64,000 nt of DNA, from the NCBI RefSeq assembly GCF_003334255.1, contig NZ_QOWU01000024.1; one strand, 5' to 3'. The stretch is from Escherichia coli (GTDB taxonomy: Bacteria; Pseudomonadota; Gammaproteobacteria; Enterobacterales; Enterobacteriaceae). The notes beneath the pieces are model-generated. The model saw only the letters and a list, made by a program, of their open reading frames with translations, was not told where the DNA came from and searched no databases. Every line of letters starts with the position of its first letter. The stretch's first letter is position 1. This document shows positions 45,359 through 51,297 of the stretch, piece by piece. The position numbers and the translations under genes are program-made.

Positions 45359-46152
45359 GTGGCAATGCTGGTTGCCGCAGGACAGTTTGCTGTTACATCT
45401 GTGTGGGAAAAGAACGCTGAGATTTGTGCCTCGTTGATGGCGCAGGCGGCGGAAAACGACGTATCGCTGTTTGTCCTGCCGGAAGCATTGCTGGCGCGCG
45501 ATGATCATGATGCAGATCTATCGGTTAAATCAGCACAGCTGCTGGAAGGCGAATTCCTCGGACTTTACGGCGAGAAAGTAAACGTAACATGATGACGACA
45601 ATTCTGACGATTCATGTTCCTTCAACGCCGGGGCGCGCATGGAATATGCTGGTGGCACTTCAGGCAGGAAACATCGTCGCCCGTTATGCCAAACTGCATC
45701 TCTATGATGCATTTGCCATTCAGGAATCACGCCGTGTTGATGCTGGTAATGAAATCGCTCCGTTACTGGAGGTGGAAGGGATGAAGGTCGGTCTGATGAC
45801 CTGTTATGACTTACGCTTTCCAGAGCTGGCGCTGGCACAGGCATTACAGGGAGCTGAAATCCTGGTACTTCCTGCCGCCTGGGTTCGCGGGCCGCTCAAA
45901 GAGCATCACTGGTCAACGTTGCTTGCCGCTCGTGCGCTGGATACCACCTGTTATATGGTGGCGGCGGGGGAGTGCGGGAACAAAAATATCGGTCAAAGCC
46001 GGATTATAGATCCCTTTGGCGTCACCATTGCGGCAGCGTCAGAAATGCCTGCACTCATTATGGCGGAAGTGACGCCCGAACGTGTGCGTCAGGTGCGCGC
46101 GCAACTGCCCGTCTTAAACAACCGTCGCTTTGCGCCGCCGCAATTATTATGA
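45359..46152 (+). pseudogene. ybeM: Frameshifted C-N hydrolase (nitrilase-superfamily) gene
   Basis: Two co-directional ORFs (45359-45592 and 45589-46152) in different frames meet at an ATGA overlap and together resemble one nitrilase-family protein. Confidence 0.8.
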
Positions 46153-46280: not shown

Positions 46281-46484
46281 ATGGGTGAGATTAGTATTAC
46301 CAAACTGCTGGTAGTTGCGGCGCTGGTCGTTCTGCTGTTTGGGACTAAGAAGTTACGTACGCTGGGCGGAGACCTTGGAGCGGCCATTAAAGGGTTCAAG
46401 AAGGCGATGAATGATGACGATGCTGCGGCGAAAAAAGGCGCAGACGTTGATCTTCAGGCTGAAAAGCTCTCTCATAAAGAGTGA
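46281..46484 (+). CDS. tatE: Twin-arginine translocase subunit TatE
   Basis: 67-aa ORF with N-terminal transmembrane helix and amphipathic helix (TatA paralog). Confidence 0.9.
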
Positions 46485-46523
46485 CGTGGCGAGCAGGACG
46501 CTCCCTCAATATCTTGTTCGATA

Positions 46524-46556
46524 CAAAAAACCCGCTTCAAAAAGCGGGTTTTTTAT
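46524..46556. terminator. Bidirectional rho-independent terminator between tatE and lipA
   Basis: aaaaaacccgctt caaaa agcgggttttttat between convergent genes. Confidence 0.75.
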
Positions 46557-46584
46557 CAGACAGATGTAAGTAATTATTACAGGA

Positions 46585-47550
46585 TTACTTAACTTCCATC
46601 CCTTTCGCCTGCAAATCGGCGTGGTAAGAAGAGCGGACAAACGGACCGCATGCAGCATGGGTAAAGCCCATCGCCAGCGCTTCGGCTTTCATTTCGTCGA
46701 ACTCATCCGGGCTAACGTAACGTTGAACCGGCAGGTGATGGCGGCTTGGCTGCAAATATTGCCCCAGCGTTAACATCGTCACACCATGACGGCGCAGGTC
46801 GCGCATTACCTCAATAATTTCTTCATTGGTTTCACCCAGTCCCACCATCAGACCAGACTTGGTCGGGATTTCCGGATGCGCTTCTTTAAAGCGTTCCAGC
46901 AGCTTCAGCGACCAGTTGTAATCTGCACCAGGCCGTACCTGACGGTAAATACGCGGTACGTTTTCCAGGTTATGGTTGAACACATCTGGTGGCGTTGCAG
47001 TCAGAATATCCAGAGCACGATCCATACGACCGCGGAAATCCGGCACCAGAGTTTCAATTTTGATTTGCGGGCTTTTTTCCCGAATGGCAGTAATGCAATC
47101 CGCAAAGTGCTGGGCACCGCCATCGCGCAGGTCATCACGGTCAACGGAGGTGATAACCACATAACGCAGCGCCATATCGGCAATGGTCTGCGCCAGTTTC
47201 ACTGGTTCATTGGCATCAGGAGCTACCGGGCGACCGTGGGCAACATCACAGAACGGACAACGGCGGGTACAAATAGCGCCGAGGATCATAAACGTTGCTG
47301 TGCCGTGGTTGAAGCATTCCGCCAGGTTAGGGCAGGAGGCTTCCTCGCAGACAGAATGCAGGCCATTTTTGCGCATTGCGGCTTTGATGCCCTGGATACG
47401 TGTAGAGTCCGCTGGAAGCTTGATTTTCATCCATTCCGGCTTGCGCAGCAGGGCTTCGCGCTCTGTTGCCACGTTTTTAACCGGGATAAGGGCCATCTTA
47501 TCGGCATCGCGGTATTTAACACCGCGTTCCATCACAATGGGTTTACTCAT
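46585..47550 (-). CDS. lipA: Lipoyl synthase (radical SAM)
   Basis: 321-aa ORF with the CxxxCxxC radical-SAM motif (CTRRCPFC) and the N-terminal cysteine cluster. Confidence 0.95.
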
Positions 47551-47758
47551 AGCGTGCGTGTTCCAGTTGCGAATTACGAAGGAAAGCGTTTCAATTCAAT
47601 AGATTGTTGTAATTATCAACTATTTTTGAATTAACGACTGGCAGTATATCATTGAAACGGACCTGAAAGCAGCCAAAGCGGTCGCGAAAATGTAAAATTG
47701 TTGTTGGATTGTGCCATTTTATCGTTCTGCGCTGTGATCTGGCTGTAACAATACTTTT

Positions 47759-48712
47759 TCAAAATGCATTACGGATAACATCTATTACTCCGTGCAGGAT
47801 GGGATCACGCAGGCTGAATTTGTTGTAGTGGATAGAGAAATCTATTTGCTCCTCATTTAAGGACGGAAAAGGCAGTTTTTCCAGCGGCCAGCAGCGGCTA
47901 AACAGGTTATAAAAACGGCTGGGAATAATCGCTAACATGTCACTGTTGGCAACCAGTGCAGCGATTGTCAAAATGTTGTAGCTGGTGAAATTGATTTGCC
48001 GGTCCGGAAACATTTCTTGAACTCTCTGCCGCAGACCGCTGAAATTTTGCTCTTCCGGTAACAGAAGTACATGCGCAGCGTTGTCGATAGTCTCTCTGTC
48101 ATCTTCTAAAGAGAGTAGTGGATTTCCCTCGCGGCAAATTAACACCATATTGTCGGTGAACAGAACATGATGTTGCACCGTACGATTGGTGCAAAACATG
48201 TTATCGATGATGAGATCGGTTTGAAACTGACTGAGTTGGTTTTCCGCGTCGCTGATGGGCGGGTTGCGCAGTAAAAGCTGCGGATAGTGAGTTTTAATCG
48301 CCCGATAGATGACAGGAAGGACCAGTGCTCCGACCGAGGGAGTGGTCGCAATAGTTATCGTTCGTTGCTTATCATAGCTTCCTTCGATATCCAGCGCGCC
48401 AAGAATGGACTCAAGGCCCTGACTGATATACTCATGTAGATGCATCGCAAATGCGGTAGGAGTGACACCCTGGCCTTTGCGAATAAACAATGGGTCAGGG
48501 AATATAACGCGCAGTTTCTGAATAGACTGACTGATTGCCGAGGGGGTCAGATTAAGCACTTTCGCTGCATTAACGATCCCTTTATGTACATATACAGCTT
48601 CAAAAATAGTCAGAAGGTTAAGATCAATATTTCGTAAGGTTGTAAATATTTGTGGTTTACCTTCTGACGACTTTCTGCTTAAACAGGGTTCAATTTGATT
48701 ATTACTATCCAC
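47759..48712 (-). CDS. ybeF: LysR-type transcriptional regulator
   Basis: 317-aa ORF with LysR-type helix-turn-helix (NAAKVLNLTPSAISQSIQKLR); AT-rich. Confidence 0.8.
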   Translation of the reverse strand: MDSNNQIEPCLSRKSSEGKPQIFTTLRNIDLNLLTIFEAVYVHKGIVNAAKVLNLTPSAISQSIQKLRVIFPDPLFIRKGQGVTPTAFAMHLHEYISQGLESILGALDIEGSYDKQRTITIATTPSVGALVLPVIYRAIKTHYPQLLLRNPPISDAENQLSQFQTDLIIDNMFCTNRTVQHHVLFTDNMVLICREGNPLLSLEDDRETIDNAAHVLLLPEEQNFSGLRQRVQEMFPDRQINFTSYNILTIAALVANSDMLAIIPSRFYNLFSRCWPLEKLPFPSLNEEQIDFSIHYNKFSLRDPILHGVIDVIRNAF

Positions 48713-48970
48713 GCACTTACTCCAATTTTATTCATGGAAAAATAATATTTAAAAAATTACAATAATCTTATGTCTAATTGGAACGGAACGCTTTTGCTCA
48801 CCATAATCAACTATTTCAATAGGTTAATCAATGGGGTGAGTTACGGAGCAAGGCGTGGCACCGCATTTCTGCAAGTGATAAAGAAAATATACAAACGCGA
48901 AGGAGATGTAAAGCATTAGCAGATATTATGAGTAATGACCCAGTGTAAATTGGGCCATTGATGTATGGAA

Positions 48971-49612
48971 TTAAGCGGTAATATATTCGAAGTCCGGATT
49001 GTTTAGTAGCGCTAAAATATTTTCCAGTAAACGTGGAGCAATATTATTAGTCGTCGCTTCGGGTTTCCATTGTGATATTTTAGCCATTTCCATTCCGGCA
49101 TACCCACAAGGATTAATACGTAAAAATGGTGAAAGATCCATATTGACGTTTAATGCCAGACCGTGGAATGAACAACCGCGTCGAATACGTAAACCCAGTG
49201 AGCAAATTTTCTTTTCCCCAACATAGACACCTGGCGCGTCAGCCCGAGGATGCGCTTCTATACCCAGTTCAGCCAGGGTATTCACCACTGTTTGCTCAAG
49301 CAAGGTCACCAGTTCACGCACACCGAGTTTACGGCGTTTCAGGTTAAGCAACACATACATCACCTGTTGCCCCGGCCCGTGATAAGTCACCTGCCCACCG
49401 CGATCGCTCTGGATCACCGGAATATCACCCGGCATTAAAATGTGCTCCGCTTTTCCTGCCTGACCTTGGGTGAATACCGGATAGTGCTCGACCAGCCAGA
49501 TTTCATCAAGGGTACTATCATCGCGGGTATCGGTGAATTCATGCATAGCCTGGGAGATTGGCTCGTAAGGCTGAAGACCGAGCTGGCGGACAAGAATTTT
49601 ATCCTGATACAA
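48971..49612 (-). CDS. lipB: Octanoyltransferase (lipoyl(octanoyl) transferase)
   Basis: 213-aa ORF with TTG start (caa at 49610-49612); recognised as LipB. Confidence 0.9.
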
Positions 49613-49712
49613 AACGGCATCTCCGTGGAGAATGAGTAAAAGTGGGGGAAAAGTATATCACAGCGAGGAGAGGGGAGTTACCCGACCAGGAGCCGGGTAA
49701 CGGAGAAGCGAG

Positions 49713-49976
49713 TTACAGAACCATGCGGACAATATCGATTTTGCCCAGTTCTTCATACAGTGTTTCAACCTGCTCGATATGAGTGGCGTTGATAGTGATA
49801 GATACCGAGTGGTAGTTGCCTTTGCTGCTTGGTTTTACCGTTGGGGTGTAGTCACCTGGCGCATGGCGCTGTACCACTTCAACCACCTGATCAACCAGCT
49901 CAGGTAACGCCTGCCCCATAACTTTGTAAGTAAAAGGAGTAGGGAATTCAAGCAGTTCGTTAAGTTTGGTTTTCAT
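49713..49976 (-). CDS. ybeD: UPF0250-family small protein
   Basis: 87-aa ORF recognised as YbeD. Confidence 0.9.
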
Positions 49977-50007
49977 GTCAGCTCCGGCGTAACGTAATTA
50001 AATAGCA

Positions 50008-50036
50008 ACTCCCGCCAGAAGGCGGGAGTTTTTTAC
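50008..50036. terminator. Hairpin between dacA and ybeD (probable dacA terminator or attenuator)
   Basis: ctcccgcc agaa ggcgggag: perfect 8-bp stem with an A-run upstream and ttttttact downstream on the plus strand. Confidence 0.5.
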
Positions 50037-50085
50037 TGATGCTTAGTATATGGGGACGGAAATTACACTTTCAAGTGTTTAATTT

Positions 50086-51297
50086 TTAACCAAACCAGTG
50101 ATGGAACATTAATTTAATGTAATCAATGATTTTGCCGAAGAAGTTACCTTCCGGGATTTCTTGCAACACAACCAGCGGGCGTTGCTCGATCGTTTTGCCA
50201 TCAAGCTGGAAGTTGATAGTTCCGACGACCTGATTCTTTTGCAGCGGCGCATGCAATTCACTGCTGTTCAGCACATAGCTGGCTTTCAGATCTTTCATGC
50301 GACCACGCGGAATGGTCAGGTACACGTCTTTATCAACCCCTAACGAAGCGCGATCAGAATCACCAAACCAAACCGGTTCAGAGGCGAACTCTTTACCTAC
50401 TTTCAGTGGGTTAACGGTTTCAAAGAAACGGAAGCCCCAGGTTAGCAGTTTTTTACTTTCGGCTTCACGGCCTTTAAAAGTACGTCCGCCCATTACCGCA
50501 GAAATCAAGCGCATCTGGCCTTCAGTCGCAGAAGCAACAAGGTTGTAACCTGCTTTGTCAGTGTGTCCGGTTTTGATGCCGTCGACATTCAGGCTGTTAT
50601 CCCATAACAGGCCGTTACGGTTCAGCTGGCGAATACCGTTAAACGTAAATTCTTTTTCTTTATAGATCGAGTATTCATTCGGTACGTCACGGATCAATGC
50701 CTGGCCGATCAGCGCCATATCTCGCGCGGAGCTGTACTGACCATCAGCATCCAGACCATGTACCGTCTGGAAGTGGGTATTTTTCAGGCCCAGTGCGTTA
50801 ACGTAGCTGTTCATCAAGCCAACAAAAGCGTCCTGGCTACCAGCGGCAAAATCGGCCATGGCGACACAAGCATCGTTACCCGATTGCAGGTTAATACCGC
50901 GGATCAGCTGAGAAACCGGAACCTGCATGCCCGGTTTGAGGAACATCAGCGAAGAACCTTTAAACACCGGGTTACCGGTGGCCCATGCGTCGTTGCCGAT
51001 AGTGACTAAATCAGTTTCTTTAAATTTACCGGCTTTCATTGCCTGGCCGATAACGTAACTGGTCATCATTTTGGTCAGGCTGGCAGGATCGCGGCGGACA
51101 TCTGCGTTCTGTTCGGCGAGCACTTTGCCGGAGTTATAGTCAATCAGGATGTAGGACTCCGCATCGATCTGCGGTACACCCGGGATCATAGTTTTGATAT
51201 TCAGGTCATCGGCATGTGCAGCAGAGATAAAGGCTGTGCAAAGAGCCGTGGTGAGCGCCAGGCGCTTCATGATACGAGCGGAAAAAATGGTATTCAT
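50086..51297 (-). CDS. dacA: D-alanyl-D-alanine carboxypeptidase PBP5
   Basis: Start trimmed to [18 protein letters not shown] (cat at 51295-51297), 403 aa; SxxK motif (SLTK) present. Confidence 0.9.

Follow-up and report, generated by a model that had tools for sequence, protein, structure and literature searches.

The LysR-type regulator gene ybeF between lipB and lipA: a probable old insertion in the Enterobacteriaceae and its decay in Escherichia

Relatives of YbeF and identity of the gene

LeuO belongs to the same subgroup of LysR-type transcription factors (LTTRs) as YbeF; leuO is silenced by H-NS, and LeuO has no classical small-molecule effector. The closest described relative of YbeF is CitR (ybdO), a repressor of citR-ybdNM. 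ChIP-exo places a CitR peak on the citR promoter itself, CitR represses ybdNM, and its gene is reported to be H-NS regulated. In two further systems, IlvY-ilvC and CynR-cynTSX, the regulator has a divergent target and a T-N11-A dyad near its own start. For YbeF itself, published work already covers the family, ChIP-exo sites, knockout RNA-seq and the place of the gene in four enteric genera, and the location of ybeF between lipB and lipA is an ordinary feature that has been described before.

The window, that is, the whole stretch of DNA analysed here, comprises 64,000 nucleotides of contig NZ_QOWU01000024.1 from Escherichia coli (RefSeq assembly GCF_003334255.1). Its ORF at 47759-48712 codes for a full-length LysR-type transcription factor belonging to the narrow YbeF family, and the identity and coordinates given in the first-pass annotation agree with the RefSeq gene ybeF, the 317-aa ORF and the family model. 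The genes and domains concerned are as follows.

24050..24952, minus strand: citR (ybdO), closest paralogue of ybeF; no other gene of the window is as AT-rich (GC 0.386)
46585..47550, minus strand: lipA, downstream neighbour (ORF list, RefSeq)
47759..48712, minus strand: ybeF coding sequence, 317 aa (ORF list and RefSeq at identical coordinates)
47765..48367, minus strand: LysR effector (substrate-binding) domain of ybeF, residues 116-316, fast-evolving (Pfam scan)
48446..48622, minus strand: winged helix-turn-helix DNA-binding domain of ybeF, Pfam HTH_1, residues 31-89
48712-48710, minus strand: ybeF GTG start codon (sequence reading)
48723-48720, minus strand: ybeF Shine-Dalgarno sequence GGAG (sequence reading)
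48971..49612, minus strand: lipB, upstream neighbour, TTG start (ORF list, RefSeq)

The protein matches the NCBIfam equivalog model NF008554 of the YbeF family over model positions 1-317 of 317 with 609.8 bits (cutoff 277), and the Pfam scan found both LTTR domains, HTH_1 (PF00126, E = 2.5e-14) at the N-terminus and LysR_substrate (PF03466, E = 1.9e-16) at the C-terminus. It shows no difference from the type member (NF008554/PRK11482; E. coli b0629) in length, position or score. Other copies score lower, with 484 bits for the Cedecea-like Ag1, 404 for Mangrovibacter and a marginal 285 for Rahnella. The two domains have evolved at very different rates: among 23 Enterobacteriaceae orthologues, 71% of the positions in residues 25-90 are invariant vs 10% in the effector domain. 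In comparisons with Salmonella, Enterobacter and Rahnella the DNA-binding domain is 77-95% identical, and the effector domain 61%, 52% and 26%, respectively.

CitR, encoded 24 kb from ybeF in the same window, forms the sister clade of YbeF in the tree and shares 55% identity with it in the DNA-binding domain. Each of the two genes is AT-rich and points the same way as the genes that follow it, and the two have similar dyads before the start codon. However, the effector domains are only 23% identical, YbeF has no reported local ChIP-exo peak, and YbeF scores 182.6 bits against the CitR model NF047710, below its cutoff of 400 bits, which the window citR passes with 467.5. The LeuO model NF007063 is likewise not reached (112.5 bits, cutoff 262). 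LeuO resembles YbeF as its third or fourth best family match and in being poorly expressed, but LeuO is an H-NS antagonist and nothing indicates that YbeF acts in this way. IlvY and CynR have the same domain architecture, and their dyad has a counterpart before ybeF in most genera; in contrast to their divergent targets, ybeF is flanked by housekeeping genes that run in its own direction and whose own regulatory regions appear to be older.

Position, base composition and descent

Synteny was compared in 80 LipB-anchored genomes. Without ybeF, lipB and lipA lie 14-64 bp apart in Vibrionaceae and Alteromonadales, 16-43 bp apart in Hafniaceae, Budviciaceae and Serratia, and 110-363 bp apart in Erwiniaceae, Pectobacteriaceae, Yersinia, Rouxiella and Morganellaceae. 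The gap measures 1.3-1.5 kb and holds ybeF in Escherichia, Citrobacter R56, Pseudocitrobacter, Kluyvera, Enterobacter, Pluralibacter, Superficieibacter, Pseudescherichia, Phytobacter, Kosakonia, Siccibacter, Cedecea and Mangrovibacter; the order lipB-ybeF-lipA is also found in Salmonella. Almost all Enterobacteriaceae sampled thus carry ybeF in this gap, and the position between lipB and lipA, used here as the operational criterion, applies to 29 of the 29 ybeF-positive species plus Salmonella. The sole sampled exception outside the family is Rahnella, with a sister copy in the same gap. It was reported earlier that Klebsiella, Salmonella and Enterobacter 638 have ybeF at this locus and that Yersinia and Shewanella do not (PMC4398509). 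The comparison supports ybeF being an insertion into the lipB-lipA spacer. It bears out the earlier suggestion of an insertion into an ancestral lipoate locus, lipB and lipA being adjacent outside the Enterobacteriaceae, Rahnella excepted. Insertion scars were also looked for; around ybeF there were only short two-copy matches, as expected by chance, and no integrase, tRNA or meaningful flanking repeat was found at the locus.

The base composition gives a different picture from the one first drawn. The GC and GC3 values are 0.449 and 0.472 for ybeF, 0.534 and 0.556 for lipA, and 0.477 and 0.453 for lipB. The description of ybeF as visibly more AT-rich than its flanks therefore holds clearly against lipA, which is 8.5 points higher in GC, but barely against lipB, which is only 2.8 points higher and has the lower GC3. 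Of 59 annotated genes in the window, ybeF has the third lowest GC (z = -1.7) and the sixth lowest GC3 (z = -1.4), and its codon-usage distance to the window pool (0.34) is the 12th highest of the 42 genes of at least 600 nt. The gene is thus only moderately AT-rich; the most AT-rich stretches are the two spacers that flank it, with GC of 0.39 and 0.35. In 29 species the GC3 of ybeF follows that of its flanks (r = 0.88, slope 0.91), and in Salmonella it is practically that of lipA (0.597 and 0.593). AT-richness consequently fails as a clue to insertion, and the AT bias of ybeF seen here is a trait of the Escherichia lineage that touches lipB too. As to the three findings that the first-pass annotation had named as counting against its proposal, ybeF is not present in all relatives, its codon usage is roughly typical of the host, and targets have been reported.

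The neighbour-joining tree of YbeF has the same branching as a species tree of four proteins; Rahnella is the sister lineage, and CitR-like proteins form the outgroup. The trees are built from few proteins and carry no support values. Given this congruence and a GC3 that tracks the host, the insertion appears to be ancient and to have been inherited vertically thereafter. The Rahnella copy would mean either that the insertion came before the split of Enterobacteriaceae and Yersiniaceae, with extra losses, or that there was an early lateral transfer via the conserved flanks. Between E. coli and E. albertii the dS of ybeF is about 2.65 vs 0.36-0.83 for its neighbours, a divergence that would fit simple vertical descent only with an unusually high local substitution rate. 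A search for the donor lineage gave relatives outside the YbeF clade of about 30% identity, as near to CitR as to YbeF, and their genomic contexts contained no pointer to a donor. In the plasmid collection YbeF occurred only on large, non-mobilizable, chromosomal-looking records, and in the phage collection there was no close match, all being at most 28% identical.

Spacers, promoters and the dyad before ybeF

The elements read or predicted in the two spacers are listed below.

47551..47642, minus strand: lipA leader, conserved with or without ybeF (Enterobacteriaceae alignment)
47643..47651, minus strand: extended -10 element TGATATACT of the predicted lipA promoter, about 100 nt 5' of the lipA ATG
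47689..47717, minus strand: alternative lipA promoter ATGGCA-17-TACATT (genomic SELEX prediction, PMC3946193)
48729..48748, minus strand: degenerate dyad remnant upstream of the ybeF Shine-Dalgarno sequence (spacer alignment)
48886..48912, minus strand: ybeF promoter TTTACA-15-TATATT in the lipB-ybeF spacer (sequence reading; TTTACA at 48912 from the promoter scan)
48935..48958, minus strand: hairpin ATGGCCCA-N8-TGGGTCAT directly 3' of the lipB stop codon, without a clear T-run in the window

The TTTACA and TATATT hexamers have been listed as a constitutive sigma-70 promoter of ybeF (PMC3946193), and the alignment showed both to be kept in most Enterobacteriaceae spacers. The lipB 3' hairpin has 5 pairs in RNAalifold over 20 species, and compensatory double changes occur in 4 of these. 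On the other side of ybeF, the TGATATACT element is invariant in 21 Enterobacteriaceae, and TGnTATAnT recurs at -90 to -122 in Pectobacteriaceae, Erwiniaceae, Yersiniaceae and Morganellaceae, all without ybeF. We take this motif at about -100 to be the putative lipA promoter. As families without ybeF share this motif, promoter and leader of lipA are probably older than the inserted gene. A TTTACA/TACA block at the alternative lipA promoter is conserved in the Enterobacteriaceae alignment as well. The leader alignment, which includes the ybeF-less Citrobacter youngae, Shimwellia and BIGb0407, has a mean column identity of 77%, and no conserved RNA fold was found in the leader (-0.92 kcal/mol, zero covariation). 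In the Rfam scan of 46400-50100 all matches were sub-threshold and lay on the lipA/tatE terminator (about 46520-46600); the spacers around ybeF gave none. The leaders of lipA and ybeF share a 14-nt motif, AAATAGTTGATAAT, in Escherichia only.

The exact dyad CATTCA-N5-TGAATG, which contains TTCA-N5-TGAA and so a T-N11-A box, was found at 12 loci, with a single copy in each and in every case immediately 5' of the ybeF Shine-Dalgarno sequence. It is degenerate in E. coli and E. albertii. The right arm survives in Escherichia as TGAATA, while the left arm is damaged and so is the spacing, and in this window no copy with up to 2 mismatches precedes ybeF. Since the dyad is invariant wherever it is present, its conservation does not tell a protein site from an RNA hairpin. 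Similar dyads lie at citR/ybdN, namely CATTGA-N5-TGAATA at 24986-25002 and another at 23995-24011. In the mechanism favoured here, the dyad would be an operator that YbeF binds before its own ribosome-binding site, with autoregulation as the result. The further reading that YbeF is an autoregulated orphan LTTR sharing its type of dyad operator with CitR, that this circuit is intact in most Enterobacteriaceae (Enterobacter, Kluyvera, Kosakonia, Pluralibacter, Pseudescherichia and Phytobacter, in part also Salmonella) and has been dismantled specifically in Escherichia, where the gene is turning into a pseudogene, and that K-12 is the wrong organism for its regulon can be put forward only tentatively. 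Within the three K-12 YbeF ChIP-exo peaks no match to the dyad was found at up to 3 mismatches.

Loss, reported targets and competing explanations

Within the Enterobacteriaceae ybeF has been lost at least 5 times with lipA and lipB intact. Nested absences were found in the Citrobacter freundii complex, Shimwellia, BIGb0407 and the genome L026, where treZ-treY-glgX stand in its place, and Escherichia sp. L001 retains only a C-terminal remnant. Among 5426 complete E. coli genomes, 4368 cover at least 80% of ybeF and about 19.5% have a truncated copy, consisting of the N-terminal part alone and annotated as a pseudogene; this allele has a 396-bp deletion, and the carriers include ST131 strains and EPEC E2348/69. 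One strain has an IS1 insertion in the gene. The omega of ybeF ranges from 0.03 to 0.17 vs 0.005-0.02 for lipA, and within E. coli it is about 0.10 (6 non-synonymous and 17 synonymous changes), suggesting that ybeF is under purifying but relaxed selection. The degenerate dyad, the AT-ward synonymous drift and the truncation of about one copy in five show that ybeF is dispensable and decaying in Escherichia.

It could be argued that ybeF of Escherichia, the K-12-type copy in this window included, is an inert relic turning into a pseudogene, and that its transcriptome effects are indirect or strain artefacts. The degenerate dyad of E. coli and E. albertii, the truncated copies, the remnant in another Escherichia species, the IS1 insertion, the exceptional divergence between E. 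coli and E. albertii, and a ChIP-exo yield of just three weak, apparently intragenic sites are all in keeping with this. Nevertheless, we think it improbable: K-12 has an intact ORF, whose DNA-binding domain matches the versions of Salmonella, Enterobacter and E. albertii at 92-95% identity, the omega within E. coli indicates constraint, and the knockout alters 67 genes including lrhA.

The statement that YbeF has no characterised target is outdated, as the literature contains ChIP-exo data and RNA-seq of a knockout. In the knockout 67 genes changed, with lrhA lower and the FlhDC (flagellar) regulon higher. In K-12 three weak, non-local ChIP-exo sites were reported, with signal-to-noise ratios of 1.1-4.3; their coordinates on NC_000913.3 fall inside fsaA, yihP and lepA, and they are apparently intragenic. 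The second peak, in yihP by its coordinates, disagrees with the gene named in the published table. No peak was reported at ybeF itself or in the lipB-lipA region. The differential-expression entries for the knockout, available as incomplete tables, do not mention lipA or lipB. An H-NS genomic SELEX site, detected in vitro, lies in the lipB-ybeF spacer (PMC3946193).

A local role, which had also been considered at first, finds little room in these data. LTTRs usually control their neighbours, and YbeF might be a metabolite-sensing local regulator of lipA, lipB or both: ybeF is embedded between lipB and lipA, all three co-oriented on the minus strand, the absence of a convincing terminator after it would permit read-through into lipA, ybeD-lipB-ybeF-lipA has been called an operon (PMC4398509), and AAATAGTTGATAAT is common to the lipA and ybeF leaders in Escherichia. 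We regard such a role as distinctly unlikely. The reported binding sites are elsewhere, lipA and lipB do not figure among the knockout effects in the portion of the tables at hand, and no divergently transcribed neighbour, the typical arrangement of an LTTR target, adjoins ybeF. Moreover, the lipA promoter and leader appear to predate ybeF and are equally conserved without it, repeated loss or truncation of the gene has left lipA and lipB intact, and the shared 14-mer is not kept outside Escherichia.

That ybeF is a recent AT-rich foreign islet under xenogeneic silencing by H-NS is very improbable indeed, for its low GC rank, the AT-rich spacers (GC 0.35-0.39), the H-NS SELEX site (PMC3946193) and the likewise AT-rich, reportedly H-NS-regulated paralogue citR are outweighed by its identical position in nearly every Enterobacteriaceae genus, the congruent gene and species trees, a GC3 that tracks the host, equals that of lipA in Salmonella and exceeds that of lipB in the window, and the failure to find an integrase, tRNA, meaningful repeats or genuine plasmid or phage copies. 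A recent genomic islet was rejected also as a class, the composition being not host-unlike (z of -1.7 for GC and -1.4 for GC3) and the distribution contradicting it.

Taken as a whole, the locus is probably best explained by a single old insertion followed by vertical descent, with YbeF as an orphan LTTR that has distant targets and with decay in Escherichia. One copy of ybeF, apparently as a single gene, would have entered the spacer between lipB and lipA close to the root of the Enterobacteriaceae, landing 3' of the lipB hairpin and 5' of the existing lipA promoter and leader. Because it landed upstream of a pre-existing lipA promoter and leader, expression of the lipoate genes need not have been disturbed. 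Its own sigma-70 promoter, within the AT-rich spacer that binds H-NS in vitro according to the literature, would drive ybeF. The regulator may then act on distant targets, the sole reported effect being that on lrhA and FlhDC in the knockout; lipA and lipB are probably not among its targets.

What this analysis adds to the earlier descriptions is the phylogenetic limits of the YbeF family, its repeated loss, the truncated allele of about one fifth of E. coli, and a candidate operator lost in Escherichia. The analysis disposes of a plausible lead, ybeF being no recent AT-rich island and giving no hint of a role as lipoate regulator, and it accounts for how an extra gene could be tolerated between lipB and lipA, as the putative lipA promoter already lay downstream. 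The practical value is small; since the candidate operator is degenerate in Escherichia, Salmonella or Enterobacter may be better suited to work on the YbeF regulon.

Identity and base composition of ybeF

The LysR-type regulator gene ybeF is real and correctly named, and its position between lipA and lipB in only some enteric genera is already in the literature. The coordinates given in the first-pass annotation are exactly those of the CDS, and its product is a full-length match to the NCBIfam equivalog 'YbeF family transcriptional regulator' (609.8 bits; cutoff 277). The runner-up families are CitR, at 182.6 bits against a cutoff of 400, then BsrA, then LeuO, at 112.5 bits against 262.

Features of ybeF and its product
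47759-48712, minus strand: ybeF CDS, GTG start, 317 amino acids
48723-48720, minus strand: Shine-Dalgarno GGAG of ybeF, read from the sequence
YbeF residues 31-89: LysR wHTH (Pfam)
YbeF residues 116-316: LysR_substrate (Pfam)

The gene content of the window is K-12-type (fes/ent, cit, pagP, cspE, crcB, tatE, lipA, ybeF, lipB, ybeD, dacA, mrdAB, leuS). The MC4100 RefSeq record differs from it at 10 positions in the first 50 kb, and its annotation coordinates map one-to-one. In the K-12-type record annotation, ybeM (deaminated-glutathione amidase; 45365-46152) is frameshifted, and the window shows it as two ORFs (45359-45592 and 45589-46152). Other E. coli strains (L089, L090 and L083) have an intact copy.

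Base composition
ybeF: GC 0.449, GC3 0.472
lipA: GC 0.534, GC3 0.556
lipB: GC 0.477, GC3 0.453
lipA-ybeF spacer, 208 bp: GC 0.389
ybeF-lipB spacer, 258 bp: GC 0.353
whole window: GC 0.517

The gene had been described as more AT-rich than its flanks, which holds clearly against lipA but hardly against lipB, the latter being poorer in GC at third positions. Among the 59 annotated window genes, ybeF has the third lowest GC (z = -1.7), above only cspE and its paralogue citR, and the sixth lowest GC3 (z = -1.4), and in codon usage it stands at an unremarkable distance from the pool of window genes, ranking 12th highest among the 42 that reach 600 nt; it is therefore moderately AT-rich. The most AT-rich gene of the window is citR (ybdO; 24050-24952; GC 0.386). 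Across 29 ybeF-positive species, the GC3 of ybeF tracks the combined GC3 of lipA, lipB and dacA (r = 0.88, slope 0.91, mean offset -0.04), and its GC deficit against the flanks affects all three codon positions (-0.055, -0.037 and -0.040). The GC3 values in Salmonella are 0.597 for ybeF, 0.593 for lipA and 0.509 for lipB, and that of lipB is 0.42-0.45 in Escherichia versus 0.55-0.60 in Citrobacter. The AT bias of ybeF is an Escherichia-lineage effect common to lipB; as a clue it is weak, and it is no sign of foreign origin.

Phylogenetic limits and age of the insertion

DacA, YbeD, LipB, YbeF, LipA and TatE were located by tblastn in 80 LipB-anchored loci, each from a different species, in a sample reaching from Escherichia to Alteromonadales. 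The order dacA-ybeD-lipB-lipA was universal.

The lipB-lipA gap in the sampled groups
Vibrionaceae: 14 bp, ybeF absent
Alteromonadales: 20-64 bp, ybeF absent
Hafniaceae, Budviciaceae, Serratia: 16-43 bp, ybeF absent
Morganellaceae: 127-146 bp, ybeF absent
Erwiniaceae, Pectobacteriaceae, Yersinia, Rouxiella: 110-363 bp, ybeF absent
Escherichia, Citrobacter R56, Pseudocitrobacter, Kluyvera, Enterobacter, Pluralibacter, Superficieibacter, Pseudescherichia, Phytobacter, Kosakonia, Siccibacter, Cedecea, Mangrovibacter: 1.3-1.5 kb, ybeF present in the same orientation

Salmonella likewise has lipB-ybeF-lipA, the Klebsiella copy is 54% identical to the E. coli protein, and further YbeF homologues are listed from C. 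koseri, C. amalonaticus, C. farmeri, C. rodentium, Leclercia, Lelliottia, Yokenella and others. Our survey agrees with a published comparison (PMC4398509, Figure 2), where E. coli, Enterobacter 638, Klebsiella and Salmonella have ybeF in the lipA-lipB interval and Yersinia and Shewanella do not; YbeF also belongs to the core LTTR set of the entire genus Salmonella (PMC12994799). The earlier suggestion of an insertion into an ancestral lipoate locus is supported: a neighbour-joining tree of DacA, YbeD, LipB and LipA unites the genera with ybeF as the Enterobacteriaceae clade, and outside this family the gap holds no ybeF in the sampled loci, save for the slot of Rahnella.

The YbeF tree mirrors the species tree, with Mangrovibacter and Cedecea basal, Escherichia, Salmonella and Citrobacter together, and CitR-like proteins as the sister clade. 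Plasmid and phage searches found no genuine carrier of a close YbeF homologue, and a flanking-repeat search revealed no recognisable insertion scar. In addition, GC3 follows the host; the insertion is thus ancient and compositionally equilibrated.

In Rahnella (Yersiniaceae), a LysR gene occupies the same slot and has the same orientation. With 285 bits its product narrowly passes the cutoff of the YbeF model, and on CitR it reaches 209; its identity to YbeF is 77% over the DNA-binding domain but 26% over the effector domain, and it branches sister to all enterobacterial YbeFs. This copy may be the sign of an older insertion followed by extra losses, its relatives Rouxiella, Yersinia and Serratia being without ybeF, or it may reflect an early transfer via the conserved flanks.

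The landing site and the ybeF upstream region

Conservation is strong over about 100-180 nt upstream of lipA in every member of the Enterobacteriaceae compared, including those that lack ybeF (the Citrobacter youngae group, Shimwellia, 'Klebsiella sp.' BIGb0407 and L026, 'Enterobacter sp. R1(2018)').

Features upstream of lipA and ybeF
47651-47643, minus strand: extended -10 element TGATATACT, invariant core, about 100 nt before the lipA ATG; putative promoter
48912-48886, minus strand: conserved promoter TTTACA-15/16-TATATT of ybeF

The element TGnTATAnT was also found at -90 to -122 in Brenneria, Pectobacterium, Dickeya, Pantoea, Erwinia, Mixta, Rouxiella, Rahnella, Yersinia, Photorhabdus and Providencia, followed in many of these genera by a TTCAAA.AAAGTTGA-like leader block and, in nearly all of the non-Enterobacteriaceae genera, by a AACTGGAAC...ATG block ahead of the lipA start. 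Because the -10 element and leader occur across families without ybeF, the lipA promoter and leader appear to be older than ybeF, which would have entered upstream of them. No conserved RNA fold was found in the lipA leader, and thus its conservation suggests a protein-binding or promoter function. A predicted lipA promoter, ATGGCA-17-TACATT, lies slightly upstream of the extended -10 (PMC3946193).

A comparison of the lipA promoter and leader region (window 47551-47651) in loci L003, L030, L032-L055, L066 and L071 showed a leader conserved in sequence (TTCAAAAATAGTTGATAA..., AACTGGAAC...), with the -10 and leader common to Enterobacteriaceae and recognisable in Erwiniaceae, Pectobacteriaceae, Yersiniaceae and Morganellaceae. 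A 14-nt direct repeat, AAATAGTTGAT[A/T]AT (minus strand; 47612-47625 and 48803-48816), ties the most conserved lipA-leader block to the ybeF leader. It occurs only in Escherichia, with 1 mismatch in K-12 and 3 in E. albertii, and may be due to chance or to lineage-specific remodelling of the ybeF leader.

In L026, a 7.1-kb block (L026:10643-17759) replaces ybeF; its products of 595, 839 and 691 aa, judged by eye, resemble TreZ, TreY and a debranching enzyme of the GlgX type, making treZ-treY-glgX a second, unrelated cargo in this spacer. The lipB-lipA spacer appears to be permissive for insertion, and the arrival of ybeF need not have changed lipoate gene expression. Another single-gene LTTR in a spacer of housekeeping genes is P0152, a CitR/YbeF-like protein about 30-35% identical to CitR and YbeF (L086:4001-4939 and L087:4001-4939), whose gene stands alone between rmf and fabA in an enterobacterial-type context (pqiABC-rmf-[LysR]-fabA-lon-like-matP-ompA).

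Alignment of 21 lipB-ybeF spacers revealed four parts: a hairpin immediately 3' of the lipB stop codon, conserved through covariation (5 pairs, 4 of them with compensatory double changes), the ybeF promoter, about 170 unalignable nt, and a sharply conserved TCAACTATCATTCATATTGTGAATGAAT abutting the Shine-Dalgarno. The promoter hexamers are those listed for a constitutive sigma-70 promoter of ybeF, and the spacer was H-NS-bound in genomic SELEX (PMC3946193). The fourth part contains the dyad CATTCA-N5-TGAATG, including a T-N11-A box. In 12 of the 20-kb loci a single exact copy of the dyad is present, invariably right before the ybeF Shine-Dalgarno, and the Salmonella copy differs from it by two mismatches. 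Both the left arm and the spacing are damaged in E. coli and E. albertii, where no dyad with up to two mismatches was found at the ybeF position. Two-mismatch dyads do occur in the window near the paralogue:

24986-25002: two-mismatch dyad, 35 nt upstream of citR
23995-24011: two-mismatch dyad, between citR and ybdN

A CitR ChIP-exo peak has been reported upstream of citR-ybdNM (PMC9068703). The dyad is probably a YbeF operator serving autoregulation, as in most LTTRs; its arms never vary, which leaves room for its being an RNA hairpin instead of a protein site.

Constraint, loss and function of ybeF

The omega values between close species pairs were 0.03-0.17 for ybeF, 0.005-0.02 for lipA, 0.003-0.04 for dacA and 0.02-0.12 for lipB, and about 0.10 for ybeF within E. 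coli; ybeF is constrained, if loosely. Among 23 Enterobacteriaceae, 71% of residues 25-90 (the DNA-binding half) are invariant, compared with 10% of the effector domain, and the 24-residue N-terminal extension is barely conserved; the constraint is concentrated in the DNA-binding half. The E. coli and E. albertii proteins are 82% identical, and Nei-Gojobori dS between these species is about 2.65 for ybeF (near saturation), 0.36 for lipA, 0.70 for dacA and 0.83 for lipB. Nucleotide identity falls abruptly at the ybeF borders and is back to 98-100% at the lipA leader. The divergence of ybeF is very high, far above that of its neighbours. For ybeD, dS is only 0.05, and 47759-48712 is 64-82% identical per 100 nt to the E. 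albertii locus L002 (L002:10896-11846) versus 85-100% in the flanks.

Losses of ybeF are frequent. The gene is lost in the Citrobacter freundii complex (212-bp gap, lipA leader retained), Shimwellia, BIGb0407 and L026; only a diverged C-terminal remnant is left in L001, an Escherichia labelled E. coli whose distance to K-12 is about that of E. albertii. The lipA-lipB block is present in 5422 of 5426 complete E. coli genomes, and only 4368 have at least 80% ybeF coverage; the remaining genomes, about 1056 (19.5%), align over the N-terminal part only. This truncated allele has a 396-bp deletion of the 3' half and is annotated as a pseudogene, in some cases with further damage. Its carriers include ST131 strains JJ2434 and SaT040 and EPEC E2348/69, which belong to phylogroup B2. 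One E. coli strain has an IS1 element inside ybeF. In the complete genome L084 (E. coli 52F4, NZ_CM147848.1), a deletion takes ybeF together with the bulk of lipA, of which a 156-nt pseudogene is left beside intact lipB; unless the deletion is an assembly artefact, lipoate auxotrophy would be expected of this strain.

The view that YbeF has no characterised target is outdated, because weak ChIP-exo sites and knockout RNA changes have been published. When myc-tagged YbeF was assayed by ChIP-exo in M9 glucose, three weak sites were obtained, with signal/noise ratios of 1.8, 1.1 and 4.3; they are labelled near moeB, yfiD and yihQ, none of them in the lip region (PMC8464067), and the dyad is absent from these three K-12 peaks. 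Site 2 (2706922-2706960; label yfiD, b2579) lies inside lepA (b2569) when placed on NC_000913.3 (L094, 2706640-2707240), a mismatch of label and coordinate; the other two lie inside fsaA and yihP. In a published ybeF knockout 67 genes changed, with lrhA down 3.5-fold and the FlhDC regulon up; YbeF binding at lrhA was neither detected nor predicted by the authors. YbeF fusions were translocated via the F-plasmid type IV secretion system in a published Cre-reporter screen. A local regulatory role, the other earlier proposal, finds no support.

What is added here refines a known, ordinary feature: the phylogenetic limits of the ybeF insertion and its landing site upstream of an apparently older lipA promoter; its repeated loss, including a truncated allele in about one-fifth of complete E. 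coli genomes; and a candidate operator that is kept outside Escherichia and degenerate within it.
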